Source: Candidatus Kapaibacterium sp. (GTDB lineage Bacteria > Bacteroidota > Ignavibacteria > Kapaibacteriales > UBA4661). Taken from it: DNA of 64,000 bases. Below are positions 1-44,591 of this stretch, one piece after another. The notes under the pieces were generated by a model that searched no databases, was not told the DNA's origin, and saw only the letters and a list, made by a program, of their open reading frames with translations. Position numbers and translations under genes: made by a program. The stretch covers positions 6,024 to 70,023 of the forward strand of contig JANYIG010000165.1 of NCBI GenBank assembly GCA_025358765.1, in the 5' to 3' direction. Positions within the stretch are counted from its first letter, which is position 1; every line of letters starts with the position of its first letter.

Positions 1-1507
1 CAAATCACAAAATGTGACGACGAACACTATCCCACTTGACCTCGACGAGCCAGTGCGTGTGACCGATTCATGGGCTGATCACCATGATTTTGTTTTTTTG
101 CCTTCAAACCCTAATGTCATGCTGACGCTAAATGACGGCGGAATTTGGCGAACCAATGATTGTATGTCAGATACAATAGCATACACCTCACTCAATAATG
201 GCTATCGCACGACGCAGTTTTATACAGTGGCAATCAATCACGCCGTTCCAGGTGATAATACTGTGATGGGCGGTTTGCAAGACCGTACAACATATATGGT
301 ACGTTCCACAAAAGATGTGGGGTATCGAGTAGGGTTTGGCGATGGCTATACTTGTGCTATTAGCGAAAACGGTAAAAAATATTATACTTCATCACAATAT
401 GCTATACTGTATCGGTTTGAACTCGATAGCCGTGGCAATAGAACTCGTTTAATGAGGATAGATCCTTTTACAATGCCTTTTGAAGGAGCACGATATTTTT
501 TACTTAATCCTTTTATTCTCGACCCGAATGATGAAAGTATCATGTATTTAGCCGGCGGTACGCGCCTTTGGCGTAACAGGCTTATCAACGCTGTCGATGC
601 GTATTCTGTACAAACAAACTGGCAATCTATTACTGATTCGCTCAAAGGAGAAGTTATTAGTGCAGTGGCGGTGTCCAAACAGCCCGCCAATATTGTCTAT
701 ATTGGAACAAGCGCTGGTAAGATCTATAAAATACCCAATGCTAAGAATATATCTAGTCCTGCGCCGATGCAGAATATTTCCTCATCGCTATTTCCCAACA
801 GTTCCCTGACCGGCGCATTTATTTCATGTATTGCCGTTGATCACACAAATGCGGATTGGGCTATTGTCGCCTTTTCAAATTACAATGTTCAAAGTTTATT
901 TCTAACGACTGATGGCGGCGCAACATGGGTGCCAGTGGGGGGAAATCTTGAAGAGCGATCAAATGGCACGGGCAATGGTCCGTCAGTGGCATGGGTGAAC
1001 ATTGCGTTGGTTGGCGGTAAACCATGGTATTTTGCTGCAACCTCCGTAGGACTGTTTTCAACAAATAATCTGGACGGCATGAATACTGTATGGGAACGTG
1101 AAGGAGCGTCTACAATTGGCATCATGGATGTACGAATGGTGGATGTCCGCAAAAGCGATGGATTTATCGTAGCCGCAACGCATGGTAACGGCTTGTATGC
1201 TTCTACAATTGTCGTTGCTCCTGCGCGCTCTAATCCTGATTCCCCACAGCTTCAACTTTTGCAGAATTATCCAAATCCTGCCCAAGCCATGACATCCATC
1301 ACCTTTTTTCTCCCACAAAGTGCTCATGCACGGCTTGTGCTGTGGAATGCTCATGGTCAGGAAGTGCAAAAAATTATTGATGCTCCCCTGCCTTCAGGAG
1401 AGCATACAATACAGCTTAATACTCAACTGCTGGCGGCGGGTGCGTATTTGTTCCGCTTAGAGGCGAATGCTCAGTCTATTGTGCGAACAATGATAGTCAG
1501 TCATTAA
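1..1507 (+). CDS. BNR/Asp-box repeat (sialidase / Ycf48-like beta-propeller) protein with type-A T9SS C-terminal sorting domain; 5' end truncated by the window edge
   Basis: The reading frame is open from the window start, and the called GTG at 14 lacks any signal peptide, so the gene continues upstream. There are repeated SxDxGxTW-like BNR motifs (TDGGATW, SWADH). The C-terminus YPNPAQAMTSITFFL...GAYLFRLEANAQSIVRTMIV matches the T9SS CTD consensus. Confidence 0.6.
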   Translation, partial: KSQNVTTNTIPLDLDEPVRVTDSWADHHDFVFLPSNPNVMLTLNDGGIWRTNDCMSDTIAYTSLNNGYRTTQFYTVAINHAVPGDNTVMGGLQDRTTYMVRSTKDVGYRVGFGDGYTCAISENGKKYYTSSQYAILYRFELDSRGNRTRLMRIDPFTMPFEGARYFLLNPFILDPNDESIMYLAGGTRLWRNRLINAVDAYSVQTNWQSITDSLKGEVISAVAVSKQPANIVYIGTSAGKIYKIPNAKNISSPAPMQNISSSLFPNSSLTGAFISCIAVDHTNADWAIVAFSNYNVQSLFLTTDGGATWVPVGGNLEERSNGTGNGPSVAWVNIALVGGKPWYFAATSVGLFSTNNLDGMNTVWEREGASTIGIMDVRMVDVRKSDGFIVAATHGNGLYASTIVVAPARSNPDSPQLQLLQNYPNPAQAMTSITFFLPQSAHARLVLWNAHGQEVQKIIDAPLPSGEHTIQLNTQLLAAGAYLFRLEANAQSIVRTMIVSH

Positions 1508-1637: not shown

Positions 1638-2207
1638 ATGAGCCAACACGAAGCCCTCTTTGTATTCATGGAACAACGACCTATCGCTCTTGAGCCTGTC
1701 GTCCCTGCACAGGAGTCCACACGCCATATACGCCGTGACGACTTCACGCGCCTGCTTGCGCCTGTGCAAGACAAGCTCTTGCGCTTTGCCTATACGCTCA
1801 CCCGCAATCGGGACGATGCACAAGACATCACAGCCGAGGCAGTATTGCTTGGATATGAGCAGTTTCATACGCTCCGTGACGAAGCGCTCTTCAAGACGTG
1901 GATGTTTACCATTGCCCAGCGCGTGTTTTACCGCGCCCTGCGGCGCTCGAAACGATTCATTCCGCTTGCAGATTCCGATGAACAGACATCCTCCATGCCG
2001 CTCCCAGAGCGCTCCGCAGAAGTCTCCTTGCTCTATGCCGCACTCGACCGCCTTCCCCGCGAACAACGCGAAACGGTCGTTTTGTTTGAAATTGTGGGGC
2101 TGTCGTTAGAGGAAATTCAGGCGGTACAAGGCGGTTCGCTTTCCGGCGTGAAATCGCGCCTCGTGCGCGGGCGGGAAAAACTCAAGCACTTGCTTGGAGA
2201 GAAGTGA
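1638..2207 (+). CDS. ECF (sigma-70 family, sigma-24-type) RNA polymerase sigma factor
   Basis: Region 2 (LLRFAYTLTRNRDDAQDITAEAVL) and region 4 (LPREQRETVVLFEIVGLSLEEIQAVQGGSLSGVKSRLVRGREKL) motifs are present. Start moved to the first ATG (MSQHE); the alternative ATG is at 1668. Confidence 0.8.
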   Translation: MSQHEALFVFMEQRPIALEPVVPAQESTRHIRRDDFTRLLAPVQDKLLRFAYTLTRNRDDAQDITAEAVLLGYEQFHTLRDEALFKTWMFTIAQRVFYRALRRSKRFIPLADSDEQTSSMPLPERSAEVSLLYAALDRLPREQRETVVLFEIVGLSLEEIQAVQGGSLSGVKSRLVRGREKLKHLLGEK

Positions 2208-2239
2208 AAATTACGGTAATGACCAAATGACCAACAACC

Positions 2240-3895
2240 ATGAACTCTGAACATAACCTTGACAATCTCTTTGAGCAGGCACGACGTGATGCCGAACGGC
2301 TCCGCTTCGGACAGGATGAACTCGCGAGCATCCTCGATAAAGCTGATTCCGTGCGCGGTGCGCCAATGCCGGCTCCTAACTCACGTATTCAACGACTTTT
2401 TAACCGCAAAACAATTATGAAAACATCGTTGCTCACAACAGTGGCGATCGTGACGGCGCTGCTCTGGAACAATGGCGAACAACCGCCGATACAGCAATCT
2501 ATCACACAAGTACCGTCGCAACAGCTTATACAGCCTACACAACCCACAGCATCAGCCATTCAGCATGGCAGCCAGCATCAACGACACGACCGCAACGGCA
2601 CAGCACAAAGACCGACAATTCAGACGACAACGCCGTTGAACTCTGTAGCGCCTGTGGATTCTGTGAAAGAACCTGCACCGTACGATTTTGTGGCGGTTGA
2701 TGATGGTGGTGAACCGAATACCGACATGAACCGCCTTTCGGAAATAGCAATATACCCGCCGGAAGCACGGCAAAAGGGCATTGAAGGCAATGTAATGGTG
2801 CGAGTACTGGTTGGCAAAAACGGTAAAGCAAAGCGGTGTTTTGTCGAACAAACTGCTTCACCTTTGTTGAACCAAGCGGCAATGGACGCGGTGCTGCAAG
2901 CTCCGTTCACGGCTGCCATTCATAACAAACAGCCCGTGGATTGTTGGGTTTCGTATCCAGTGAAATTTAAGCTGAACGAGATTTCTAAAGGCGGAACGAT
3001 AGGCGGGGTTTTGCTTTTGAAGCTGAATGATGAGGAGTTACAAACGCTCGGTGTGAGTACCTCTCAGTCTTCTGGAGAAAATACGACAACACTTATCACG
3101 GGAAAAGATACAACTGTTTTTAATCATCATCCGCGCTCGTTGAGTTTTTTGATTCGTTCGGATAAAGAAGCTAAACGTGCAAGCGTTCGGATGTATTACA
3201 AAAGGGTACAAGGTGGAACAAATTTGCAAGTCATAGAAGATGGATTTGTCTTCACCTTAGATGAAAAAAGCTCTGAAAAAATACCAGACATCGTCCCCGT
3301 TTTGTTATCACAAGGCATCAATGGGCAAAAAATTTCTGTTTATGATGGGGTAGATACTGTGGTAGTATCAAAAACTGTCAACCATTTAGTCCCTGTTGCT
3401 GTTGCTATCAACACTAAAGCGGAGCAAGCCGTGGTTCTCTGGTACGAACCAACGCCAGCCGTTCTTGCAGCATTGCCCGAACGCTACCGCACGGCATTGG
3501 AGCGTGAGTTAAAAGCATCCGAAAAATATTCCTCGCTTTGCGACATTCAAAACCCACAAGAACGCAAAGAAATCGAAAATGCCATAGCAGGGCGACCGTT
3601 TTTTGATACGTGGCGCTCGTGTGCTGGGGTGCTGTCGGTGAAGTCCGTTTTCCCCAACCCCGCACGGGAACAATCAACGGTGCGCTTTCGGTTGGATGCT
3701 CCGCGCAATATCACACTTTCGGTACACGACATCTATGGGCAGCGCCTTTCGAGTATTCCCCGCACAAACGAGCTTCCAAGCGGTGAACACGAACTTCTTT
3801 TGGATTTAACGGGCAGAACAGCAGGAATCTACCTTGTTGTTCTGACCACAGACAACGGCGAACAAGCCGTACAACGAATCATCGTGGAACGATAA
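2240..3895 (+). CDS. Anti-sigma-like membrane protein with a TonB C-terminal domain and a T9SS C-terminal sorting domain
   Basis: The gene starts 33 nt after the ECF sigma gene. Its layout is a ~59-aa N-terminal region, one hydrophobic segment (MKTSLLTTVAIVTALLW), a P/Q-rich linker, a TonB_C-like block (IYPPEARQKGIEGNVMVRVLVGKNGKAKRCFVEQTASPLLNQAAMDAVLQAPFTAAIHNKQPVDCWVSYPVKFKL), a ~300-aa unknown region, and a T9SS CTD (VFPNPAREQSTVRFRL...GIYLVVLTTDNGEQAVQRIIV). In an alternative model the start is the internal ATG at about 2417, making the hydrophobic segment a signal peptide. Confidence 0.55.
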   Translation: MNSEHNLDNLFEQARRDAERLRFGQDELASILDKADSVRGAPMPAPNSRIQRLFNRKTIMKTSLLTTVAIVTALLWNNGEQPPIQQSITQVPSQQLIQPTQPTASAIQHGSQHQRHDRNGTAQRPTIQTTTPLNSVAPVDSVKEPAPYDFVAVDDGGEPNTDMNRLSEIAIYPPEARQKGIEGNVMVRVLVGKNGKAKRCFVEQTASPLLNQAAMDAVLQAPFTAAIHNKQPVDCWVSYPVKFKLNEISKGGTIGGVLLLKLNDEELQTLGVSTSQSSGENTTTLITGKDTTVFNHHPRSLSFLIRSDKEAKRASVRMYYKRVQGGTNLQVIEDGFVFTLDEKSSEKIPDIVPVLLSQGINGQKISVYDGVDTVVVSKTVNHLVPVAVAINTKAEQAVVLWYEPTPAVLAALPERYRTALERELKASEKYSSLCDIQNPQERKEIENAIAGRPFFDTWRSCAGVLSVKSVFPNPAREQSTVRFRLDAPRNITLSVHDIYGQRLSSIPRTNELPSGEHELLLDLTGRTAGIYLVVLTTDNGEQAVQRIIVER

Positions 3896-3940: not shown

Positions 3941-3967
3941 GTGCTCCGGGTCGCGGAGGGCTTTTTG
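3941..3967 (+). terminator. Putative terminator hairpin (ctccg-ggtcg-cggag) followed by gcttttt
   Basis: A short GC stem plus a T5 tract, 45 nt after the stop at 3895, between convergent genes. Confidence 0.35.
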
Positions 3968-4063: not shown

Positions 4064-4612
4064 TCAAAAACTAATCGTCAGTACATTCGTTGCGGCATTA
4101 AAGCTGCTCGCAAAACGCTGAAGCGGTCCTGATGCCGGTCCACTAAGACGGGAACCATCTTTAGAAGAATATTCTGAGCCATGACACGGGCAAACCATCA
4201 CCGCGCCTGCCGAACTCGGCAAACCCACGTCGCAGCCCGTGTGCGTACACACCGCAGTCAGCACCAGAAACTCAGTGGTCGAGGAACGAATAATGATCAA
4301 GTTTCGCCCGCCATTGTTTGCGCCAAATTGCTTTGTCACGGCTCCACCCACATTCTTCAACGCCACTTCGTTGCTCACATTCAACGTAGCCGTAATGCCG
4401 GAACTTTTGATGGTCGTATTCTCGCAAGAATTAACGAGCGTTGTCAGCGCTCCGGCGGAAAGCGTCACGCCCAACATAGATGCGGCTTTCAGCAAAAAAT
4501 CGCGCCTATCGGTTGTTGTATTTTGTTCTGTGTGCTGAAATTCTTCAAAGCGTTCTGTAATCTGTGGTTCACGCTGTGGTTCACTGGTATGGTAAGGAGT
4601 TGTTAACGTCAT
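4064..4612 (-). CDS. Tat-exported Rieske [2Fe-2S] domain protein
   Basis: The Rieske boxes CTHTGC and CPCHGSEY lie 16 residues apart. There is a twin-arginine signal RRDFLLKAASMLGVTLSAGA. Start set at the first ATG (MTLTTPY...), 3 nt after a stop; the ORF-track start at 4759 is upstream of this. Confidence 0.75.
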   Translation of the reverse strand: MTLTTPYHTSEPQREPQITERFEEFQHTEQNTTTDRRDFLLKAASMLGVTLSAGALTTLVNSCENTTIKSSGITATLNVSNEVALKNVGGAVTKQFGANNGGRNLIIIRSSTTEFLVLTAVCTHTGCDVGLPSSAGAVMVCPCHGSEYSSKDGSRLSGPASGPLQRFASSFNAATNVLTISF

Positions 4613-4643
4613 AGTTCTGGGGCGAAAAAGTTGCGAAAAAAAA

Positions 4644-5852
4644 TTAATAAAAAATGTGAAGCTGCACCGTCCAGCGCGTGGATGTGTACGCATCGGTGTC
4701 CGTCCAACGGTATTCGGGGCGGAGTTCCACGTAGGGCAGCAGAAAGATTTGTGCTCCAACGCTAATTTGCTGGAATGCTAATTCCGTCACATCGTTCGGA
4801 ACGGCAATACGGGTGCGCCCTCGGTCATAGCGCACGAATGGTAGCAATCCCGTTACGGGTTGATAGCTAAGTTCTGCCGTCATATTTCGTGTTTGTCGCC
4901 CATCTTTAACCCCTGAAAGCGCATATTCACCCATCAACGAGAGCCTATCGGTTAAGCCAACACCGGCAAAAGCACTCAGGAACGTGAATGCTTTATTGTT
5001 CAGTACCGAAGCGCCGATGTAGCTGTTGATAACATGGTCTTCCGTGCGAAGCCAGAGCATGGCTTTGGCAGTCATGGTCGGTGATTTTGCCAATGTGGAA
5101 AAATTAGAATTTGAATCCAGCCCATCCAGCAGTGGTACGGTTTCGGATTTTTGATTAACGGTTTGCAGCTGCGAAAGAGATTTTGGCAAAAATGCACCCG
5201 CCGTAAGCGTGAGCCATTGGAGACCATCGTAGGTGATTTCTGCGCCATATTCCGCATAATTTGGTGCGATAAGTGGATTGTAATCTGCACCCGCAATTCC
5301 ACGCACAATCATCGTATGGTCGTCGTAGCGAACACCGATGGACGGCTGGAAAAACCCTACGCGAAGTTGTGGCGACGTGAGTGTCGGCTGAATCACCACC
5401 GATGCCGCCCATGACTGCTGACCGGCATAGCGAAGCGGTCCGGCATTATACGTACCTTCAAGAGTCAGCCAAGACGTTGCCTGCCATGCCGCGTAGAATG
5501 CCAATTGCATGGGAAAAATACGGCGTTCTGCTTCAGCAGAGGTTGGTTTACGGGCAGATTGCATACGAAAATCCAAACCGAACGTCAACGCCCCATCAAA
5601 GAACGAATTTGACTCACGGTCTAAATCGTAAAGCCAGCCTAAGCCGACGCTGCGTGGTTTTAACAACGCCATCTCTTTTTCCATGTACCAGCCAAGTTCT
5701 CCGCGCAAGCCAGAGCCTTGGTTGTTAACATGGCAGTTCAGACATTTATTCCCACTTAGCAAGGAAAATTGGGGCAGTGCGGTCACGCTGTACGGCACTA
5801 CAAGTACCAATGCAGCGCAAAGGGCGATAACGAAAACGTATCGTGATTTCAT
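4644..5852 (-). CDS. cyc2: Cyc2-like fused mono-heme cytochrome c / outer-membrane beta-barrel porin
   Basis: It has a Sec signal peptide (MKSRYVFVIALCAALVLVVPYSVTA). A single CXXCH (GNKCLNCH) sits 12 aa after the predicted cleavage site. About 350 aa of amphipathic beta-strand-like sequence follow, ending in the OMP C-terminal signature ...VQLHIFY. The 402-aa size fits short Cyc2 cluster-1 proteins. Confidence 0.6.
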   Translation of the reverse strand: MKSRYVFVIALCAALVLVVPYSVTALPQFSLLSGNKCLNCHVNNQGSGLRGELGWYMEKEMALLKPRSVGLGWLYDLDRESNSFFDGALTFGLDFRMQSARKPTSAEAERRIFPMQLAFYAAWQATSWLTLEGTYNAGPLRYAGQQSWAASVVIQPTLTSPQLRVGFFQPSIGVRYDDHTMIVRGIAGADYNPLIAPNYAEYGAEITYDGLQWLTLTAGAFLPKSLSQLQTVNQKSETVPLLDGLDSNSNFSTLAKSPTMTAKAMLWLRTEDHVINSYIGASVLNNKAFTFLSAFAGVGLTDRLSLMGEYALSGVKDGRQTRNMTAELSYQPVTGLLPFVRYDRGRTRIAVPNDVTELAFQQISVGAQIFLLPYVELRPEYRWTDTDAYTSTRWTVQLHIFY

Positions 5853-5912
5853 AATAGTTAGAGGGGTTGAATGATGATTATGATAAAATTCTCAATTCTT
5901 AATTCCCAATTC

Positions 5913-6344
5913 TCAATTATTCAACGCGCCCTGCCGCACCCACGAACGAATCTGGGCGATTTCGCACTCATTGAGCCTGCTGCCAAATGGCATTTGCGTA
6001 ATTCCGTCGGAGCCTTGCACGGCAAATACAATACGATTGCCGATAGTATTGCGCCGCACCGTGTTGTAAGCACTGAGGTTTACGCCGTTGATATTGCCAC
6101 CGGCATCGGAATGACACGATATGCAATTTTTGTCCAAAAGAGGTTGAATAGTCTTGCTGTAGCTCACGCTCGCTGTGTCGCACGGACCAGCTGGAATAAT
6201 AGTTGTCGTATCTTTTTTTTCAATGCCGCGTGCGGGTCCGCTAAAATTATCACAGGATGTAAGGTAGAGCGTACAAACACTAATAACGACCAATGCGATC
6301 AAAATACATAGTTGCGACGGGCGCTTGAGCCAAAAAATAGTCAT
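5913..6344 (-). CDS. Lipoprotein mono-heme c-type cytochrome
   Basis: The signal peptide carries a lipobox (ISVCTLYLTS-C). There is a single CISCH heme-binding motif. The protein is 143 aa and sits immediately upstream, on the same strand, of the Cyc2-like gene with a 60-nt gap. Confidence 0.6.
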   Translation of the reverse strand: MTIFWLKRPSQLCILIALVVISVCTLYLTSCDNFSGPARGIEKKDTTTIIPAGPCDTASVSYSKTIQPLLDKNCISCHSDAGGNINGVNLSAYNTVRRNTIGNRIVFAVQGSDGITQMPFGSRLNECEIAQIRSWVRQGALNN

Positions 6345-13499: not shown

Positions 13500-15710
13500 A
13501 TGCGTATCACCGTGATATTCGGACATATTATTACGATTACCGCTGCATTTTGGGTAATACTCCATACCGTTCCGGTCTATGCACAGACGAATCGGGTAGA
13601 TAGCCTTCATGCTTTATTACGAGCCGCACAGAACGCCACACAAAATACGTTGCAAGATTCCGTTGTTGTTACCATTCTCAATGACCTTGCCTTCGATTAC
13701 CGTTATCGTGCGCCGGATTCCATCCTTGCCTACGCGCAGCAAGCAGGCGAATTGGCAGAGCGTATTGGTTACAGCAAAGGATTGGCAAGGGCTTTGACGC
13801 TTGTTGGTTATGCTTACAACCAACAGGGCAGATATGATCTTTCGTTTGAGCGCTACTCATCGGCGCTGCAGATTTCGACCGAACTGGCGGACAAAAACGG
13901 TATTGCGAGCGCACAAAATTTTATTGGGAATCTTCACAAACGGCTTGGAAAGTATAATGATGCTTTAGAAGCCTATTTCAAGGCATTACAGATTTGCGAG
14001 CAGCTTGGACAACGTAATCGGTATGCGTTGGCATTAAGCAATATCGGTGAAATCTATGACTTACAAGGCAAGTACGACAATGCGCTGGATGCATTGTTTC
14101 GGGCATTGAATATTTTCCAGCAAACGGGTCATAACGACATAATACTTGTGCTTCATGGACTTGGGCAAGTCTATCAGCATCAAGGCAAGTACGACCAAGC
14201 ATTAGAGTATTACTTCAAAACGGTGGAAGCAAAAGGGAAAACTGAATACAGGCGATATATTGCTGCCGCACTCTACAATATTGGCTATATTTATGCAAAA
14301 CGAGGAAAATTCGACTCCGCAATCGAATACGCACGGAATGGCTTGAAAGCCGCTCAGGAATTAGGTTCGCAGTATGAACTTTACAATGCGTACAAAGCGC
14401 TTGCCGATACATACACCGAACTTCATAAATCTGCCGAAGCGCTGCAATATTACCGCCGCTACAGCGAACTCAAAGATTCGCTCCTCTCCGACCAACAGCA
14501 AAGCAATATCGCGCATTTGCAGGAAAAAGTAGCAACTGCTACCAACGAAAAGGAAATTCAACTTCTCAAACGTGACCGCGAAGTGCAAGCGGTCGTGCGA
14601 AATTCTTTCATTGCCGGATTTGTGCTTGTATCGGCAGTGGCGTTGCTGGCGTTCAATCGGTATCGCCTGAAACGCCGTTCTGAGGCGCTTTTGCAACAAC
14701 AAAACAATGAAATCAAACAACAGCGCGACAAACTCGAAGAGCAATCAACAGCAATCGCCTCTGCCAATGATGAATTGCAATACGCCAACCATGCGCTCTA
14801 CATCAAGAATAACGAACTTGCTCAATCCGTAACGCAGATTCAGACGCTCAATAACGTTCTGGCAAAGACGAACCGCCGATTAAACGAAATCAATAGCGAA
14901 AAAAATGAACTGCTTGGTATTGTGGCGCACGACCTGAAAAATCCACTTTCGTCGGTAATTTTCAGCACGGAAATGATTCGCACCTACGGCGAAAAAATGT
15001 CCCAAGAAGAGCGCGAGCATCGCTACCGAACAATTGTAACGACGGCACAGCGCATGAATCGTATTGTTACAAATTTGTTGGACATGAATGCTATTGAGTC
15101 TGGAGCCGTGAAATTCTCGATAGAACCCTTTGATATTTGCGAAGTGACGCAAGCAGTCGTCCTCGAATACGCCGAGCGTGCCGCCACCAAAAACATTCGC
15201 ATCTTTTGCGAACAGCCGTCACACGCAGTGTTGGTAACAGCAGACAAAAATTTTACGCGGGAAATTTTGGATAATCTTGTCTCCAATGCCGTTAAATATT
15301 CGCCCCTGAGTACGAGCATTTGGCTACGAGTTACAGAGCCGATGGCGGAAACGTTGGTTGGGCAGACGAGTCAACAGAAAGTGCAGCCGACGGGTGGTAA
15401 TGGTTTATTCACAAGAAAAAACGACGCACCAATGACACGTATTGAAGTGCAAGACGAAGGACCGGGCATTTCTCACGATGATCAGAAAAAACTTTTCAAT
15501 AAATTCGCACGGTTATCTGCAAAACCCACCGGCGGCGAGGATTCAACAGGTTTAGGGCTTTCGATTGTGAAAAAACTTACGGAATCCATGCACGGCAAGG
15601 TTTGGTGCGAAAGCAACCCAGAAAGTGGCAGCCTTGGTGCGACCTTTATTGTGAATCTGCCTGCACATATCCAGATGGAAAATAGCCTCACTTCGGTACA
15701 TTCGGATTGA
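13500..15710 (+). CDS. Sensor histidine kinase with periplasmic/N-terminal TPR repeats
   Basis: A signal peptide is followed by about 8 TPR units (repeated A..Y..A pattern). A TM segment and coiled coil follow. HisKA (HDLKNPLSSV) and HATPase_c (GLGLSIVKKLTESMHGKVW) complete the protein. Confidence 0.8.
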   Translation: MRITVIFGHIITITAAFWVILHTVPVYAQTNRVDSLHALLRAAQNATQNTLQDSVVVTILNDLAFDYRYRAPDSILAYAQQAGELAERIGYSKGLARALTLVGYAYNQQGRYDLSFERYSSALQISTELADKNGIASAQNFIGNLHKRLGKYNDALEAYFKALQICEQLGQRNRYALALSNIGEIYDLQGKYDNALDALFRALNIFQQTGHNDIILVLHGLGQVYQHQGKYDQALEYYFKTVEAKGKTEYRRYIAAALYNIGYIYAKRGKFDSAIEYARNGLKAAQELGSQYELYNAYKALADTYTELHKSAEALQYYRRYSELKDSLLSDQQQSNIAHLQEKVATATNEKEIQLLKRDREVQAVVRNSFIAGFVLVSAVALLAFNRYRLKRRSEALLQQQNNEIKQQRDKLEEQSTAIASANDELQYANHALYIKNNELAQSVTQIQTLNNVLAKTNRRLNEINSEKNELLGIVAHDLKNPLSSVIFSTEMIRTYGEKMSQEEREHRYRTIVTTAQRMNRIVTNLLDMNAIESGAVKFSIEPFDICEVTQAVVLEYAERAATKNIRIFCEQPSHAVLVTADKNFTREILDNLVSNAVKYSPLSTSIWLRVTEPMAETLVGQTSQQKVQPTGGNGLFTRKNDAPMTRIEVQDEGPGISHDDQKKLFNKFARLSAKPTGGEDSTGLGLSIVKKLTESMHGKVWCESNPESGSLGATFIVNLPAHIQMENSLTSVHSD

Positions 15711-19118: not shown

Positions 19119-20819
19119 TCACTGTTTAATAAACTTTTGCATTGTGATGGCTTTTGTTTTTTTGTCCATGAGTCGCACGAAATAAACGCCGGAAGCAAAA
19201 TTGGCAACATCTATTCCATTCTCCAACTGCGGCTGCGGAAGCATAAGGATTGCACGTCCCAACGCATTTGTTACCGTTACATAGTAGGCTTCAGTGCTGG
19301 CATCGGCGAATTTGATCCATACCTTATCGTTTGCAGGATTAGGGTACAACGAAAATTTCAATGTGGGAGTATTATTGTCCAAAATTCCCGTCGTACTTGT
19401 CACCACAAACTGCCCCATCATACCTTGGTCTTCGTGAGTGGCAAAATGGCAGTGATACATAAACGGATGAATGGGATCAGAATAACTATTAAACTGCGTG
19501 ATAAACCGAATGGTTTCACCTGCTCTCACAAATACTTCGTCCTTCCACCCTTGCTCGGGTAATGGCGGAACAGAACCATTTCTACTGAGTATGTGAAATT
19601 GAACGTCATGGATATGAAACGGGTGCGCCAGAGTAGATGTGCTGCGTATTTCCCAAATCTCCGTACTGTTGAGCGGTATTTGATAGTCTATCCGTTTAAT
19701 ATCAAAAAATTGGTTATTGAGAATGGCTTTTAGCACACCACCACCAGCGTTAAAATCAGAAATTGAGAGGGTGCGCGTTATCGTTGCGTTGGCAGCATCA
19801 AAAAATTTATTGACGGTGAGTGCTGTAGGAATGGTCGTTACAGGCTTTGCCGTCGGGGATGTGATGTTCAAGCGAAGAATCTGAAAATCTTTCCCGGACA
19901 AGGCATCTTGAGTTACTTTAGAAGCAGTACCAGCTATATCACTCGCAAGCGTGGAGTTGTATGCCATCAGATTTACGACCTGTGATTGCTGGCTGGTACA
20001 ATTAACCAAGACCTCAATTCGTTCGCCCGAACATATCATATAACGGGTTATAGGAACTGGCGCGTCTAATAAACCACCATCCGAGGTAATAACATAAAAC
20101 GCTCGATTATCGCTAAAGCCAAGATTATAACACCGTTGAGTGGCAGAATTTAATATACGAAAACGTACTACTTGTGCGGGGATTGAGTATTGCGGGTTCA
20201 AAACACCATTGACCAACATAACATCAGGATGCGTTCCATCTAAGATAAATTGGTTGGTTGAGCTGAATCTACGGTCATTGATGACCAGTGGAATATCATC
20301 CACGCCATAGATGCGGGGTAGATTTAATGATGACTCAACAGAATCGCGGACAATAATGAATCCACCAACACCCGCTGTGGTTTGAGCTTCCGTTTTTTCA
20401 TGCAGATGCGGGTGATACCAATACGTTGCGGCATTATTCGTGACCTTCCAAAACGGTTGCCACGTCGTACCGGGCGGAATAACCTGATGCGGTCCGCCGT
20501 CCATCACCGCCGGAAGATGTATCCCGTGCCAATGCAGCGTAGTTGAATCGTTCAATGTATTTTTTACGTTCATACGAACAGTATCACCTTTGTTAAAAAA
20601 CAACGTCGGACCCCAAAAATTTGTATTGTTAATGCCGCCTGTAATAGTCTGGTTGCCTGTACGAAATTGTTTGAGGGTGTCCTTGATGGTGAGCGAAAAA
20701 TTTGTCCCTGAAAGTGTGTCGGGAATCCAGAGCGTGTTGTAGGTTTGACTTTGAGCGGATGAAATATGGCAAAGAAGTATGAGCGTAAGAAGCGAAAAAA
20801 ACAGAGAAGATGATTTCAT
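19119..20819 (-). CDS. Multicopper oxidase (laccase-like, three-domain) with a T9SS C-terminal sorting domain
   Basis: The copper ligand motifs HWHGIHL, HPHLHE, HPFHIHDVQFHIL and HCHFATHEDQGMMGQF are all present. It has an N-terminal signal peptide. The C-terminus carries a T9SS CTD (LYPNPANDKVWIKF...GVYFVRLMDKKTKAITMQKFIK). Confidence 0.8.
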   Translation of the reverse strand: MKSSSLFFSLLTLILLCHISSAQSQTYNTLWIPDTLSGTNFSLTIKDTLKQFRTGNQTITGGINNTNFWGPTLFFNKGDTVRMNVKNTLNDSTTLHWHGIHLPAVMDGGPHQVIPPGTTWQPFWKVTNNAATYWYHPHLHEKTEAQTTAGVGGFIIVRDSVESSLNLPRIYGVDDIPLVINDRRFSSTNQFILDGTHPDVMLVNGVLNPQYSIPAQVVRFRILNSATQRCYNLGFSDNRAFYVITSDGGLLDAPVPITRYMICSGERIEVLVNCTSQQSQVVNLMAYNSTLASDIAGTASKVTQDALSGKDFQILRLNITSPTAKPVTTIPTALTVNKFFDAANATITRTLSISDFNAGGGVLKAILNNQFFDIKRIDYQIPLNSTEIWEIRSTSTLAHPFHIHDVQFHILSRNGSVPPLPEQGWKDEVFVRAGETIRFITQFNSYSDPIHPFMYHCHFATHEDQGMMGQFVVTSTTGILDNNTPTLKFSLYPNPANDKVWIKFADASTEAYYVTVTNALGRAILMLPQPQLENGIDVANFASGVYFVRLMDKKTKAITMQKFIKQ

Positions 20820-23639: not shown

Positions 23640-24878
23640 TTACTCATACCGCAGCGCTTCCACAGGGTCGAGTTTTGAGGCACGCATTGCGGGAATCATG
23701 CCCGACAGCACACCAACGGCTATGGAAACGACCGTTGCAATCAGCAAAAGTTGCGGTGGGATGTATGGCGAAAGAAACGTTGCCCAATCCATGCGCGTTA
23801 CGCCAAACATAACCACCGAACAAAACACAAATGCGATCAATGCACCCAATAAGCACAGCGATGAAGCCTCTACAAGGAATTGGAACAAAATCGAGCTTCG
23901 CCGCGCACCCAGCGCTTTGCGAATGCCGATTTCTTTCGTGCGCTCCGTCACCGATACGAACATGATGTTCATAATCCCGATGATGCCCACAATAAACGAA
24001 AGCGTTGTCATGCCAATACCAATCGCCCACACAGAGAGTCGCAGCGTTTTTACGTTGTCGCGGAATGCCTCTGTTTCGTTGATGGCAAAATTTTCCTCTG
24101 CCTCGGGCGGAAGATTGCGGATTTGCCGCATAATACCAACTGTCTCCATCCGTGTGTTGTCAAGATTTGCCTCACCGCCAGCCTTCACAGCGATCGACAA
24201 GTTTTTTCCCGCGCCAAACAGCCCCAAAAATGATTTGAGAGGCATATAGATTTGATTGTCAATAAATGGCGGCGCAAACATAGAGGCTTGCTTTTCTACT
24301 TTGCCGATGATCGTAAACGTCGTACCCCTGATTTTAATAGTTTTCCCTAAACACGGCTCATCCTCGCCGAAGAAATTTTTTGCGACTTCGTAACCAATAA
24401 TAGCAACATTGGAGCTATACAAATCTTCTACCGGCGAGAAAAAACGCCCCTCTTTGATAACTCCAAGCGCAATACCGGAATAGACGCTATTGGTGCCGCA
24501 TACAGCAATGCCTTTATAACTTTGGTTGCCGGATTTCACAGTGGTTTGCCACTTGCGGGCAATGATAGACGTAACTTCGGCGCTTTTCAGGCGCTCCATC
24601 AATTCTTCACACTGTTTTAGCGTAATATCAGGACGGTTCATGGTTTCGCGCCATGATTTTTTGCCCGACCAATCAAATTTGTCAACATAAAGAACATCCG
24701 TGCCAAGCGAGGCAAACGCCATCTCCAGAGCGTCGTCTAAGCCTTGTAAAAACCAGCCCATCAGAATCACAAACGTGATGCCGATAACCACGCCAAGCGA
24801 GGTCAATCCCGAACGAAGTTTGTTCGAGCGCATAGCGCTAAGCGCGATTTTGATGCCTTCGAGGATTTGAGAAAACAT
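23640..24878 (-). CDS. ABC transporter permease, MacB/FtsX family (permease 1)
   Basis: A paralog of 21939..23174 with the same architecture, ending ...LDPVEALRYE. Confidence 0.8.
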   Translation of the reverse strand: MFSQILEGIKIALSAMRSNKLRSGLTSLGVVIGITFVILMGWFLQGLDDALEMAFASLGTDVLYVDKFDWSGKKSWRETMNRPDITLKQCEELMERLKSAEVTSIIARKWQTTVKSGNQSYKGIAVCGTNSVYSGIALGVIKEGRFFSPVEDLYSSNVAIIGYEVAKNFFGEDEPCLGKTIKIRGTTFTIIGKVEKQASMFAPPFIDNQIYMPLKSFLGLFGAGKNLSIAVKAGGEANLDNTRMETVGIMRQIRNLPPEAEENFAINETEAFRDNVKTLRLSVWAIGIGMTTLSFIVGIIGIMNIMFVSVTERTKEIGIRKALGARRSSILFQFLVEASSLCLLGALIAFVFCSVVMFGVTRMDWATFLSPYIPPQLLLIATVVSIAVGVLSGMIPAMRASKLDPVEALRYE

Positions 24879-41354: not shown

Positions 41355-44300
41355 ATGCAGCCAATTTTTCTCCCGAACGATTACAACACCATCCTTGTTG
41401 ACAATTTTTTCCGCAACGTACCCGAACTTGAACGTAAACGCAGCCTGATAGCACAGTGGCAGGAGAACCTTCGCACGGGTTTCGTGGGTGACCACAAAGA
41501 GGAATCGCTACAATCGCTTTTCCTGACAACTATCTTTGCAGAAGTGCTTGGCTACTCGTATCAAGGTGATGTATGGAATTTGGAAATCGAACAAAGAACC
41601 ACGCACGATACCACCAAAAGCGACGGCGCATTAGGATTTTTCCGTGTTGGTGCAGAGCCAGACGTGCGTGCCGTGATTGAACTCAAAGCACATGGCATCA
41701 ATCTTGACAAACCTCAAAGCCAGCGCAGCGACACCCATACACCCGTCGAACAAGCATTTGACTATGCTCGCAAAATGGGTGCGCGGTGCGAGTGGGTAAT
41801 TGTGTCGGACTTTGAGGAATTGCGGCTTTATCGCTATCCCGATGCGCGGCGCTACGAAGAGTTTTTGATACCGAACCTCCTAAACCCCGCAACCGATGAC
41901 GATACAGGGATTGAAGCCTTCCAACTCAAGCGATTTTTCTATTTGCTCGCCAAAGACCGCCTTTTTTACGAGCGTGAAAAAGACTATGACCAAGCGCCCG
42001 TCAGGGTGCTTTACACGGGCAGAATCAACAGTTTGAAGACCATTACCGCAAAATTCTACGATGGTTACCGAACCCAGCGCGAACAGCTTTTCTTCACGCT
42101 GCGCCGCATGAATCCTACAACTGACTTTGATGAAGTTTTACAAGCCGCACAAAAACTTATTGACCGACTACTGTTTATGCGATTCGCCAGTGATGTCGGG
42201 CTAACCCTTAACGTGCTGGACGTTTCACGGAAATATTTAACAGCGCTCGCCGAACCCGTGCCGCTTCATGAACTGAATTTGGGCTGGCAATATGTCCGTT
42301 TGCTGTTCCGTTCGTTCGACAAAGGCTATAACAACAAGATTCCACCCTTCAACGGCGGTTTGTTTGCGCCCGACGAGCGTTTGGAGCAACTTCGTGTTCC
42401 CGACGAAGCGATAGAGACATTAGAGCGATTTTTGCTGAGTTACAACTTCAAGCATGACCTCAAAGTAGATATTTTAGGGCATATTTTTGAGCAATCTATC
42501 ACGGACTTAGAGCGCCTACGTCGCCTTAAACCAAGCTCTGCCGAAGCCGTGGACGCAAAGCGTACCGAAGAAACCTCTCAAGAGATTTCTAAAGAACACT
42601 CCACTTCTAAACGCAAACAAGAGGGCGTGTTCTACACACCCGAAGCCGTTACCGAATACATCATTCGCCAAAGCGTTGGCGCATGGCTCGCCGACTGCAA
42701 AAGCGAGATTCTGAACGTACTCGGCGTGGATGATATTTCTCAACCAGAGGATGATTTTTTGCGGTGGAAAGCCGACAACGCAGCAATCATGCCGGATTTG
42801 ACGTTTGCGCGAACAATCGAACTCCACCTTGCCTTCTGGGAGCGCTACCAGAGCGCTTTGGAGAGCATAAAAATTCTCGACCCCGCTTGCGGCTCCGGTG
42901 CGTTCTTGACGCGGGTGTTTGATTTTCTTTGGGACGAGTGGCGGGTGTTGCGAGCAGAAACAATCGCACTGCGTTCGTTGCTTGTGGAAGAACAGGCAAA
43001 AACACAGACTACACTTCTGCCGCTCCGCTCTGGCAATGACGGAATGTTAGCGCCAAAGTCTCGCAAAAAAGCCGTTCCCAAAGCAGCGACGAGTAATGAA
43101 ATTACAATGAGCATAGACGAGCATACAAACGAACGTGAAGAAATTCGCCTGAAAAAACGCATTATCACGGAAAACCTCTTTGGCGTTGACCTCAATATCG
43201 AATCGGTGGAAATCACGCAGCTTTCACTCTGGCTCAAAACTGCACATAAACAAGAATCGCTTGCAAACCTCTCCCACGCCATCAAGCGTGGCAATTCGCT
43301 CATCAGCAAACGCAGCGTTGCGGGTGATACGGCATTCAAATGGGATAGCGAATTTCCTGACGTGGCGATGGCGGGCGGCTTTGATGTGGTGGTTGGCAAT
43401 CCGCCGTACGTTAGCGCAAACAACATGGATTACCGCGAACGCGAGTATTTGAACAAGGAGAAGGATTTTACGACGCTCGCCGGAAAGTGGGATTTGTACG
43501 TTGCGTTCATCGAAAAAGGCTTGCGCCTACTGAAACCAAACGGCTATCTGTCGTTCATCGTTCCTTACGGGCTGCTTAATCAACCATTTGCAGAGCAGGC
43601 GCGGGCATTCATCCTCGACCATTATATGCTTTGCTCCATTGCAGATTTACACACCGTGCGTATCTTCGAGCAAGCCACTGTGCCGTGTTGCATTCCCGTC
43701 ATCAAACACGTGCAAAGCAGTAACCACGAGGTTTCTATCGTTATGTTGGAGGGTGACGAGTTCGTGGAGCAATATCGTTTGCCCGTGTCCACATATCAAA
43801 CAACAGCGTTGCGAATGTTTCGCACGGAAAATCTTGCGCTCACTACGGGCTTATTGGAACGCATCAAAAAACGCGGAACCTCGCTTGGCAACTTGTTTTA
43901 CGTCTCGACTGGTGCGGAGATTCATGGAAAAGAACATCGCTCCGAGCGCGGCAAACTTACAAGCGGTGCAAGCAAGTTTGATCGTCTGTACGACACACAA
44001 CGCGAGGGTTTGAAGCCTTATATCGAGGGCGCTGCCATTCCAAAATCGCCACTTGGACGCTACTGTTATCCCAGTATCAACTCCTGGCTTGATTACTCTA
44101 ACCCAGATGCCATGCGCTCCCCAAAGTTCTCCGAGCTGTTTGATAGCGAAAAAATTATTGTGCGGCGTAGCTCCGGCTTATTGGGGATTTTGGCAACATA
44201 TGATGAGAGAAAGGTCTATACATCCGAAAAATGTCTGCTTATCGTGAGCAAAACCGATGTGCCGCATGACCATGAACAGCACACGGAATCAAGCCCATAC

Positions 44301-44591
44301 TCGCTGAAATACCTTCTGGCTGTGCTAAACAGTCGTGTGATGGATTTTTACTACAAATCAGTGTATAGTGGTTTTATTGATGTGTATCCAAATTACTTGA
44401 AAGCCCTGCCCATTCCAGCTATCTCGCCCACCGAGCAAGAACCGTTTGTGCGACTTGTAAATGAAGTATTGGAATGCCGCAAGGCGGGTGAAGAGACGTT
44501 TGCACAGGAGCAAGCCATAGAGCGGCTTGTGGAGGCGTTGTTTGGGGTGACGGATGCGGACAGTGCGCTCATACAAGCTAATGCTCTATAA
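41355..44591 (+). CDS. Type IIL/IIG restriction-modification enzyme, MmeI-like (fused endonuclease plus gamma-class N6-adenine methyltransferase plus TRD)
   Basis: N-terminal PD-(D/E)xK-like block GFFRVG...VIELKAHGINLDK...EQAFDYA. Methyltransferase motif X (GVFYTPEAV), motif I (LDPACGSGAFL) and motif IV (VVGNPPYVS). A ~400-aa C-terminal region is consistent with a target-recognition domain. Total 1078 aa. Confidence 0.7.
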   Translation: MQPIFLPNDYNTILVDNFFRNVPELERKRSLIAQWQENLRTGFVGDHKEESLQSLFLTTIFAEVLGYSYQGDVWNLEIEQRTTHDTTKSDGALGFFRVGAEPDVRAVIELKAHGINLDKPQSQRSDTHTPVEQAFDYARKMGARCEWVIVSDFEELRLYRYPDARRYEEFLIPNLLNPATDDDTGIEAFQLKRFFYLLAKDRLFYEREKDYDQAPVRVLYTGRINSLKTITAKFYDGYRTQREQLFFTLRRMNPTTDFDEVLQAAQKLIDRLLFMRFASDVGLTLNVLDVSRKYLTALAEPVPLHELNLGWQYVRLLFRSFDKGYNNKIPPFNGGLFAPDERLEQLRVPDEAIETLERFLLSYNFKHDLKVDILGHIFEQSITDLERLRRLKPSSAEAVDAKRTEETSQEISKEHSTSKRKQEGVFYTPEAVTEYIIRQSVGAWLADCKSEILNVLGVDDISQPEDDFLRWKADNAAIMPDLTFARTIELHLAFWERYQSALESIKILDPACGSGAFLTRVFDFLWDEWRVLRAETIALRSLLVEEQAKTQTTLLPLRSGNDGMLAPKSRKKAVPKAATSNEITMSIDEHTNEREEIRLKKRIITENLFGVDLNIESVEITQLSLWLKTAHKQESLANLSHAIKRGNSLISKRSVAGDTAFKWDSEFPDVAMAGGFDVVVGNPPYVSANNMDYREREYLNKEKDFTTLAGKWDLYVAFIEKGLRLLKPNGYLSFIVPYGLLNQPFAEQARAFILDHYMLCSIADLHTVRIFEQATVPCCIPVIKHVQSSNHEVSIVMLEGDEFVEQYRLPVSTYQTTALRMFRTENLALTTGLLERIKKRGTSLGNLFYVSTGAEIHGKEHRSERGKLTSGASKFDRLYDTQREGLKPYIEGAAIPKSPLGRYCYPSINSWLDYSNPDAMRSPKFSELFDSEKIIVRRSSGLLGILATYDERKVYTSEKCLLIVSKTDVPHDHEQHTESSPYSLKYLLAVLNSRVMDFYYKSVYSGFIDVYPNYLKALPIPAISPTEQEPFVRLVNEVLECRKAGEETFAQEQAIERLVEALFGVTDADSALIQANAL

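Follow-up and report, generated by a model that had tools for sequence, protein, structure and literature searches.

The subject of this work is a gene pair on contig JANYIG010000165.1 of Candidatus Kapaibacterium sp. (assembly GCA_025358765.1), within a stretch of 64,000 nucleotides (nt) that was analysed as a whole and is referred to here as the window. The first gene encodes an extracytoplasmic function (ECF) sigma factor, and the second, which follows directly on the same strand, encodes a protein of 551 amino acids (aa), here called the partner, that carries a TonB_C domain and ends in a type-A C-terminal sorting domain (CTD) of a type IX secretion system (T9SS). Our best overall explanation, to which we give a probability of about one half, is a sigma/anti-sigma-type operon in which the periplasmic part of the regulator is addressed to the T9SS. 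An earlier reading of the same DNA, made from its letters without database searches (the sequence-only reading), had described an ECF sigma gene followed by a 551-aa protein with both of these domains, and this description holds: both open reading frames (ORFs) lie where it had put them, and their domains score above the curated cut-offs. The features of the operon, with the evidence for each in brackets, are as follows.

1543-1569, + strand: intrinsic terminator of the upstream CTD gene (12-bp stem, T-run)
1603-1631, + strand: ECF-type promoter-like motif, TGCGACTTT-N16-GCTCTT (recurs upstream of sigma genes)
1638-2207, + strand: ECF (group IV) sigma-70 factor gene (Pfam r2 and r4_2 and TIGR02937 matches; orthologues precede the homologues of the partner)
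2240-3895, + strand: partner ORF, 551 aa (ORF list)
2240-2356, + strand: conserved cytoplasmic N-terminal motif (N-motif), aa 1-39, a putative sigma-binding segment (alignments, hidden Markov model (HMM), AlphaFold2 helix)
2414-2467, + strand: single transmembrane helix, aa 59-76, N-in/C-out, starting with the conserved Met59 (hydrophobicity, AlphaFold2)
2468-2752, + strand: disordered Pro/Gln-rich periplasmic linker, aa 77-171 (predicted local distance difference test (pLDDT) < 50, composition)
2753-2974, + strand: TonB_C domain, aa 172-245, a clade-specific insertion (Pfam and NCBIfam matches)
3002-3646, + strand: family-specific module of unknown fold, aa ~255-469 (alignment, AlphaFold2)
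3647-3886, + strand: type-A T9SS C-terminal sorting domain, aa 470-549 (PF18962, TIGR04183, AlphaFold2 beta-sandwich)
3944-3958, + strand: terminator-like hairpin and T-run after the operon (weak match)

Conservation of the gene pair

The gene directly upstream of the partner gene, in the same orientation, encodes an ECF sigma in 18 of 18 distinct loci, the pairing having been scored wherever upstream DNA was present. A search for related loci was run with 43 alignment columns from the LWYEPT...ALPERYR segment. The loci scored are the window, L003, L001 (identical to L011), L008 (identical to L012), L006, the locus of family member P0006, L010, L013-L020, and the distant members L021-L023. The gap between the two genes ranges from -20 to +165 nt (32 nt in the window, from 2207 to 2240), and in L006, the P0006 locus, L010, L022, and L023 the sigma stop and the partner start overlap by 4-8 nt, which shows translational coupling. 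Strict adjacency together with stop/start overlap is typical of stoichiometric pairs of sigma and anti-sigma factors. The other neighbouring genes vary from locus to locus, and the partner sigmas form one orthologous clade (40-49% identity, 30 invariant columns).

The sequence-only reading had pointed to the anti-sigma-like position of the partner gene, and the adjacency in all of the distinct loci bears this out. With regard to the features by which an anti-sigma factor is operationally recognised, the pair displays conserved adjacency, a promoter motif, and flanking terminators, and the partner is predicted to span the membrane once with its N-terminus in the cytoplasm. We consider it probable that the partner is the cognate anti-sigma factor, or sigma regulator, of the adjacent ECF sigma.

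A large family with a common plan

Relatives of the partner were collected exhaustively with HMMER; the family profile used no longer contained the TonB_C columns, which had dropped out as a minority. At 50% identity the family numbers at least 551 clusters for E<=1e-30, a count that rises to 1684 for E<=1e-10. Word-indexed searches returned just 7 and 4 relatives and wrongly implied a very rare protein, which the HMMER search corrected. Among the top 153 representatives, 118 have an N-terminal extension of 40-75 aa and a transmembrane segment, 12 start at the transmembrane segment, and 23 look like fragments. Two of the homologues that start at the transmembrane segment are artefacts. In P0007, which appears short, the frame is open as far as the contig edge, and in P0014 (locus L010) the called start lies inside a longer frame, which reaches back to an ATG overlapping the stop codon of the sigma gene. 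The upstream stretch of P0014 encodes MTKHRQDIEGLFTQAR..., which is the N-motif of the family in DNA left uncalled by the gene caller.

The common plan consists of the N-motif, a transmembrane segment, a polar linker (median 98.5 aa), one to several modules, a Cys pair, and the CTD. Databases name the members "T9SS type A sorting domain-containing protein", "TonB family protein", or "hypothetical", and judging from these searches this is a large unnamed family in the Bacteroidota-Ignavibacteria-Kapaibacteria group. One locus (L020, DASPKH010000249.1), labelled "Patescibacteria group bacterium", carries an ECF sigma gene and a family member with a T9SS CTD, and was most likely mis-binned from an organism of the Bacteroidota group.

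The N-terminal motif

The motif [LI]-[DN]-x-[LY]-F-x-x-A-[RK]-x3-P-[LV]-[LVM]-S-x-[ED]-E-[VI]-x-x-[LI] is common to all full-length homologues, and an HMM built from seven N-termini matches 117 of the 153 top family representatives. The motif is covered by no Pfam or NCBIfam model, and the N-terminal 58 aa contain no Cys. Weak matches of the motif profile to CpxP and to effectors (E 0.04-0.3) were treated as chance. The sequence-only reading had allowed that a poorly conserved N-terminus, with translation starting at the internal ATG, would leave a plain secreted cargo protein unrelated to the sigma factor. What was found is that the motif is conserved family-wide and that the starts of several homologues overlap the sigma stop codon, and so the long N-terminus is real.

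These observations bear on another account of the protein, in which it is ordinary T9SS cargo. The 58 N-terminal aa and the transmembrane segment would then form a long cleavable leader, as in the extended signal peptide region of autotransporters, and the adjacent sigma would merely transcribe a cargo gene that has no anti-sigma function. The CTD is genuine, members are named in databases simply as T9SS sorting-domain proteins, and no known anti-sigma domain is detectable, all of which would suit cargo. Against it, the N-motif is kept in sequence and length over hundreds of clusters, the partner gene adjoins a sigma gene in 18 of 18 loci with frequent stop/start overlap, and a conserved signal-peptidase site is absent. 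We regard ordinary cargo as a quite improbable description of the partner.

Topology and the internal Met59

The partner contains one hydrophobic segment (aa 58-76), flanked by four Lys/Arg residues on its N-terminal side and none on its C-terminal side, and the spacer that follows (aa 78-160) holds 13 Gln and 11 Pro among 83 residues. An AlphaFold2 model of the full-length partner, built on the 118-sequence alignment, has a helix at aa 4-39 (pLDDT 71-85), a transmembrane helix at 59-76, and disorder at 78-172 (pLDDT < 50). On the C-terminal side the model continues with TonB_C, then a mixed beta/alpha module, and then the CTD as a beta-sandwich with pLDDT > 90. The partner is thus predicted to be a single-pass inner-membrane protein with the N-terminus inside and the C-terminus outside. 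The hydrophobic segment starts at aa 58-59, behind a conserved cytoplasmic domain, and by a crude test does not have the form of the cleavable Sec signal peptide of T9SS cargo. A conserved signal-peptidase motif after the transmembrane segment was not found, and any small-x-small sequence occurs there in only 52 of 118 members.

Met59 (ATG 2414-2416) sits at the cytoplasmic edge of the transmembrane segment. An equivalent Met is present in 74 of the 118 members; with redundancy removed, the count is 60 of 85 (71%, against a background of 11%). Gene callers often take it as the start, as in P0014 and about 12 of the 153 representatives. The sequence-only reading had raised this internal ATG as the possible true start. 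As a replacement for the long form it fails, whereas its conservation in 71% of members keeps it as a candidate start for a second product: translation may also begin internally, at Met59, and give a shorter, secreted isoform beside the long form.

Carried further, this becomes an explanation of its own, in which the gene has dual products. The long form, translated from 2240, would be the anchored anti-sigma, and the short form, translated from Met59 (nt 2414), would be secreted T9SS cargo whose transmembrane segment serves as its Sec signal peptide. Contact between the isoforms through their shared module could give feedback between secretion and sigma activity. The conflict between anchoring and secretion then disappears, and the recurrence of the Met and the behaviour of the gene callers are both accounted for. 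Met is, however, common at the membrane interface, a charged n-region is missing from most short forms, and no conserved signal-peptidase motif follows the segment. We hold dual products to be unlikely.

The module, the Cys pair, and the CTD

The CTD occupies aa 470-549 of 551 and is a full match to the type-A sorting domain, with 35.1 bits for PF18962 (Por_Secre_tail; cut-off 27) and 42.5 bits for TIGR04183 (cut-off 23). CTD residues are invariant over the 118 family members.

Between TonB_C and the CTD lies a module of ~215-225 aa (aa ~246-469), shorter than the domain of ~300 aa that had been estimated from the letters alone. The module starts with L-x-L-x3-E-L-x3-G and, in the family alignment, ends with L-W-[YF]-x-P-T-x2-F-x2-A-L-P; in the window the end reads L-W-Y-E-P-T-x2-F-x2-A-L-P-E-R, followed by the Cys pair C434/C460. 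AlphaFold2 models the module with a pLDDT of 75.9 and a predicted template modelling score of 0.73. No Pfam or NCBIfam model covers it, and a fold search of the PDB gave no significant match (best E=0.16, template modelling score < 0.2). A resemblance to NTF2/cystatin-like folds in that search was weak and was not accepted.

The Cys pair between the module and the CTD (window 3539-3622) is a family feature: of 110 members, 89 have exactly two Cys, which amounts to a 4.7-fold enrichment of Cys. In the window protein the two are spaced by 26 residues, the family median being 6. The pair is probably a periplasmic disulfide, and its conservation supports an extracytoplasmic location of the C-terminal part.

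An immediate question is whether a CTD on an anchored protein is exported at all. The beta-sandwich might instead stay in the periplasm and there sense T9SS components, bind them as a decoy, or compete with cargo, and the partner would then sense cargo load or jamming of the T9SS in the manner of RseA/DegS, with no export of its own. This alternative shares its architecture and pairing evidence with the sigma/anti-sigma explanation given above. An inner-membrane anchor and a missing cleavage motif suit a resident periplasmic protein, and a linker of ~100 aa could span to periplasmic or outer-membrane parts of the T9SS. The CTD, on the other hand, is a full-scoring type-A sorting domain, the same as in ordinary cargo, and present evidence does not tell binding and export apart. 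A CTD that is never secreted seems to us an unlikely outcome.

The organism appears to use a T9SS, given two other CTD proteins in the window (14-1507 and 19119-20819) and the gene next to the homologue P0007. That gene (L007, 1902-2837, - strand) is of the PorP/SprF family and lies immediately downstream of, and convergent with, P0007, which hints at a physical link of some family members to T9SS outer-membrane components.

The TonB_C domain

TonB_C is matched in the partner (aa 172-245), with 62.7 bits for PF03544 (cut-off 24.6) and 50.3 bits for TIGR01352 (above its cut-off), and the nearest PDB sequences are the TonB C-terminal domains 5lw8 and 6sly. It is rare in the family: of the 153 top representatives 5 have it and 148 do not, as judged by a local HMM with a Pfam scan on a 10-protein sample. 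Among species-representative genomes it was found in seven loci of metagenome-assembled genomes (MAGs) labelled Kapaibacterium or Ignavibacteria and in one unclassified MAG. Relatives labelled Ignavibacteria UBA7675, Bacteroidales, and (probably mis-binned) Patescibacteria do not have it.

The order of transmembrane segment, Pro/Gln-rich spacer, and TonB_C resembles TonB, and the partner could be read as a TonB paralogue, that is, an ExbBD-energised transducer for a TonB-dependent transporter with extra C-terminal domains. In addition, NCBI calls the relative P0004 a "TonB family protein", and in L008 a gene for a TonB-dependent receptor lies ~1.4 kb upstream of the sigma gene. That neighbour is not conserved, however, and the SxxxH motif of the TonB transmembrane segment occurs in 0 of 118 members (the segment of the window protein, MKTSLLTTVAIVTALLW, has no His). 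The domain is also internal, with ~305 residues after it (aa 246-551), it is absent from nearly all representatives, and neither exbB nor exbD (MotA_ExbB, ExbD) adjoins the pair among the window neighbours examined or in loci L001-L010. On the strength of the transmembrane motif, the domain position, and the clade restriction, we rejected a TonB paralogue, which we rate as extremely improbable. Because SxxxH is absent, the domain is internal, and exbBD is not adjacent in the loci examined, the partner is best described, as far as sequence can tell, as carrying a borrowed, clade-specific docking module rather than as being a TonB.

The sequence-only reading had been struck by what it saw as a contradiction, a TonB domain and a T9SS CTD in one polypeptide. 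Both domains are indeed present. The combination is not the core feature of the family, in which TonB_C is confined to a few representatives and SxxxH is absent; what is general is a protein anchored in the inner membrane and coupled to a sigma factor, with a T9SS CTD at its end.

The sigma factor gene, its promoter, and the operon borders

The sigma ORF matches Sigma70_r2 (PF04542) with 40.9 bits and Sigma70_r4_2 (PF08281) with 43.5 bits, both above their cut-offs, and TIGR02937 with 59.5 bits (cut-off 42.9). The protein, of 179-189 aa, comprises regions sigma-2 and sigma-4 only, with no match to region 3 in the Pfam/NCBIfam scan. No named equivalog in NCBIfam was reached, the best being TIGR02954 (87 against 188.5 bits) and NF058625 (75.7 against 130 bits). 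The real start is more likely the ATG at 1668, which gives 179 aa, than the ORF start at 1638, because the promoter-like motif ends at 1631 and the NCBI version of the protein has 179 aa.

A two-block motif, TG[CT][AG][AT]CTT-N16-18-[TA]C[TA]T, precedes the sigma gene in 13 of 14 loci, a count that is partly circular, as the pattern was counted in the same loci from which it was derived. Its chance rate is 0.85 matches per shuffled 64 kb on both strands. What is informative is that the same placement recurs in divergent loci, and the copy at 1603-1631 is probably an autoregulated promoter of the operon. Other matches in the window are found only at 24381 and 29117, which is chance level, away from CTD genes. 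The terminator at 1543-1569 is the 5' limit of the sigma operon. With regard to the weak hairpin after the partner gene, the number of terminator-like sites in the region is not above shuffle expectation.

The gene upstream of this terminator (window 2-1507, + strand) is open to the window edge, and its product has a T9SS CTD and two Asp-box motifs (aa 42 and 302). It had been described as 5'-truncated BNR-propeller T9SS cargo. The CTD and the truncation were confirmed, whereas no Pfam BNR or propeller model is significant, the only propeller matches being sub-threshold ones to Sortilin-Vps10 and Sema. Its proposed membership in the sigma regulon is unsupported, because a strong terminator with a 12-bp stem intervenes, the promoter motif is absent near other CTD genes in the window, and the promoter of this gene lies beyond the window.

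Proposed mechanism

We propose the following scheme for the pair. The conserved cytoplasmic N-motif, with ~35 aa and two helices, would sequester the cognate sigma at the membrane, and the CTD would direct the periplasmic part towards the PorV/SprA translocon of the T9SS. A cleavage in the ~95-aa linker (site 1) would be required for, or triggered by, the engagement or export of this part, intramembrane proteolysis of the transmembrane stub would come next, and the freed sigma would drive its own promoter (TGCRACTTT-N16-GCATCTT) plus a further regulon. Sigma activity would then report the activity or capacity of the T9SS, which is the logic of FlgM and BtrA moved to a two-step secretion system. 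That sigma release is coupled to secretion in this way, from the CTD through linker cleavage to intramembrane proteolysis, is a tentative proposal, to which we give clearly less credence than to the anti-sigma role as such.

Several points weigh against the sigma/anti-sigma explanation or against its secretion step, in addition to the partial circularity of the promoter count. A recognisable anti-sigma domain, which would be one of the operational marks of such a protein, is not seen: no known domain (zf-HC2, RskA, FecR, DUF4179, etc.) was detected at the N-terminus by Pfam/NCBIfam (E<=1-10) or by a PDB profile search, and we purely infer that the N-terminus binds sigma. The T9SS cargo proteins known so far have a Sec signal peptide that is cleaved off, whereas the partner is anchored. 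Within the window no copy of the promoter motif lies near T9SS or CTD genes, and no protease site or gene for a site-1 protease was identified. Lastly, given the Met at the transmembrane edge, a secreted species may be a separate short isoform and not a cleavage product.

Comparison with known systems

A close parallel is FecI/FecR/FecA, in which an ECF sigma gene also lies beside a gene for a single-pass inner-membrane regulator whose periplasmic part meets outer-membrane machinery, and in which a domain of the type that binds the TonB box is likewise involved (here in the Kapaibacteria clade). The partner differs in having no FecR domain, per Pfam, and no conserved gene for an STN-domain transducer nearby. 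Its periplasmic end is a T9SS CTD, and TonB_C is fused to the regulator instead of belonging to a separate TonB. TonB itself shares with the partner a TonB_C domain (62.7 bits here) after a proline-containing spacer and an N-terminal transmembrane segment; the partner, unlike TonB, lacks SxxxH, has ~300 further residues after TonB_C, and is coupled to a sigma gene and not to exbBD. In the RsgI/SigI systems of cellulolytic clostridia, a short N-terminal anti-sigma segment and one transmembrane segment are followed by variable modular sensor domains. The partner family resembles them in its short N-terminal segment, single transmembrane segment, modular extracytoplasmic domains, and many paralogous pairs, and differs in that RsgI/SigI are Gram-positive, with no outer membrane or secretion tag, and that RsgI_N is unrelated in sequence.

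Anti-sigma factors that are themselves secreted provide the model for the proposed mechanism. FlgM is the secreted anti-sigma of sigma-28 in the flagellar type III secretion system, and BtrA is the secreted anti-sigma of the ECF sigma BtrS in Bordetella (PMC10732220). In both, a secretion signal on the anti-sigma makes sigma activity track the machine, as is proposed here, and BtrS, like the sigma of our pair, is of the ECF type. Neither has sequence similarity to the partner, and both are soluble, cytoplasmic, and exported in one step, whereas our candidate is predicted to be anchored and proteolysis would be needed, because only the periplasmic part can reach the T9SS.

Within the T9SS field, the pathway PorA -> PorXY -> SigP of Porphyromonas gingivalis is one in which a T9SS CTD protein informs an ECF sigma about the T9SS (PMC7712824), and a class of ECF-type promoters controls T9SS genes in Flavobacterium (PMC7712824, PMC9723704). 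The likeness to our pair is that a CTD protein passes T9SS information to an ECF sigma. PorA, however, is a small surface protein with a separate gene and acts via a two-component system, whereas the partner has the CTD and a putative sigma-binding segment on one polypeptide, beside the sigma gene. As for the borrowed TonB_C, a precedent is VreA of the Pseudomonas aeruginosa Vre (PUMA3) system, an ECF signalling system in which a TolA/TonB-like C-terminal domain does the docking in the periplasm (PMC2729926). VreA differs in being soluble in the periplasm and separate from the anti-sigma VreR, and in having an STN domain and no T9SS signal.

Other genes in the window

Elsewhere in the window, the third CTD protein is a multicopper oxidase (19119-20819, - strand; Cu-oxidase_3, Cu-oxidase_2) that ends in a T9SS sorting domain scoring 48 bits, which fits with a T9SS being active in the organism. 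Downstream of the gene pair (4064-6344, - strand), a Rieske 2Fe-2S protein with a match to a twin-arginine translocation (TAT) signal is encoded beside two ORFs that have no Pfam match and contain one CxxCH haem motif each ("CLNCH" in 4644-5852 and "CISCH" in 5913-6344). These genes may form an uncharacterised redox module. The TTG start of the Rieske gene at 4759 is probably over-extended, because the ORF overlaps its neighbour by 116 nt. The window also encodes a 736-aa histidine kinase with a long array of tetratricopeptide repeats before HisKA and HATPase_c (13500-15710, + strand), and a 1078-aa fused restriction-modification enzyme resembling MmeI/Eco57I (41355-44591, + strand; MmeI_N, MmeI_Mtase, Eco57I, N6_Mtase, TaqI_C).

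Implications

Pairs of ECF sigma and anti-sigma factors are already known, while the T9SS-tagged version is undescribed and widespread, and the window gene belongs to its rarer TonB_C sub-variant. In the searchable literature no anti-sigma-type protein with a T9SS CTD or TonB_C is described; supplements to the ECF reclassification fall outside this coverage, and an earlier mention there is possible. For annotation, truncation at the internal Met hides the N-terminal regulatory segment and the coupling to sigma, and the N-motif and the middle module each deserve a new family model.

The ways in which bacteria with a T9SS adjust their gene expression to the capacity for secretion are understood only in part, and the partner would give a direct and genetically simple link from the secretion machine to transcription. 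The boldest form of the idea, which we put forward as a doubtful possibility, is a widespread class of ECF switch (at least 551 clusters) in which an inner-membrane anti-sigma is itself a T9SS substrate, and in which recognition of the CTD together with proteolysis frees the sigma. If this is true, two-step secretion systems would have their first secretion-coupled anti-sigma checkpoint, the TonB_C of Kapaibacteria and Ignavibacteria could tie the switch to an outer-membrane protein bearing a TonB box, and the conserved internal Met might supply a second, freely secreted isoform.

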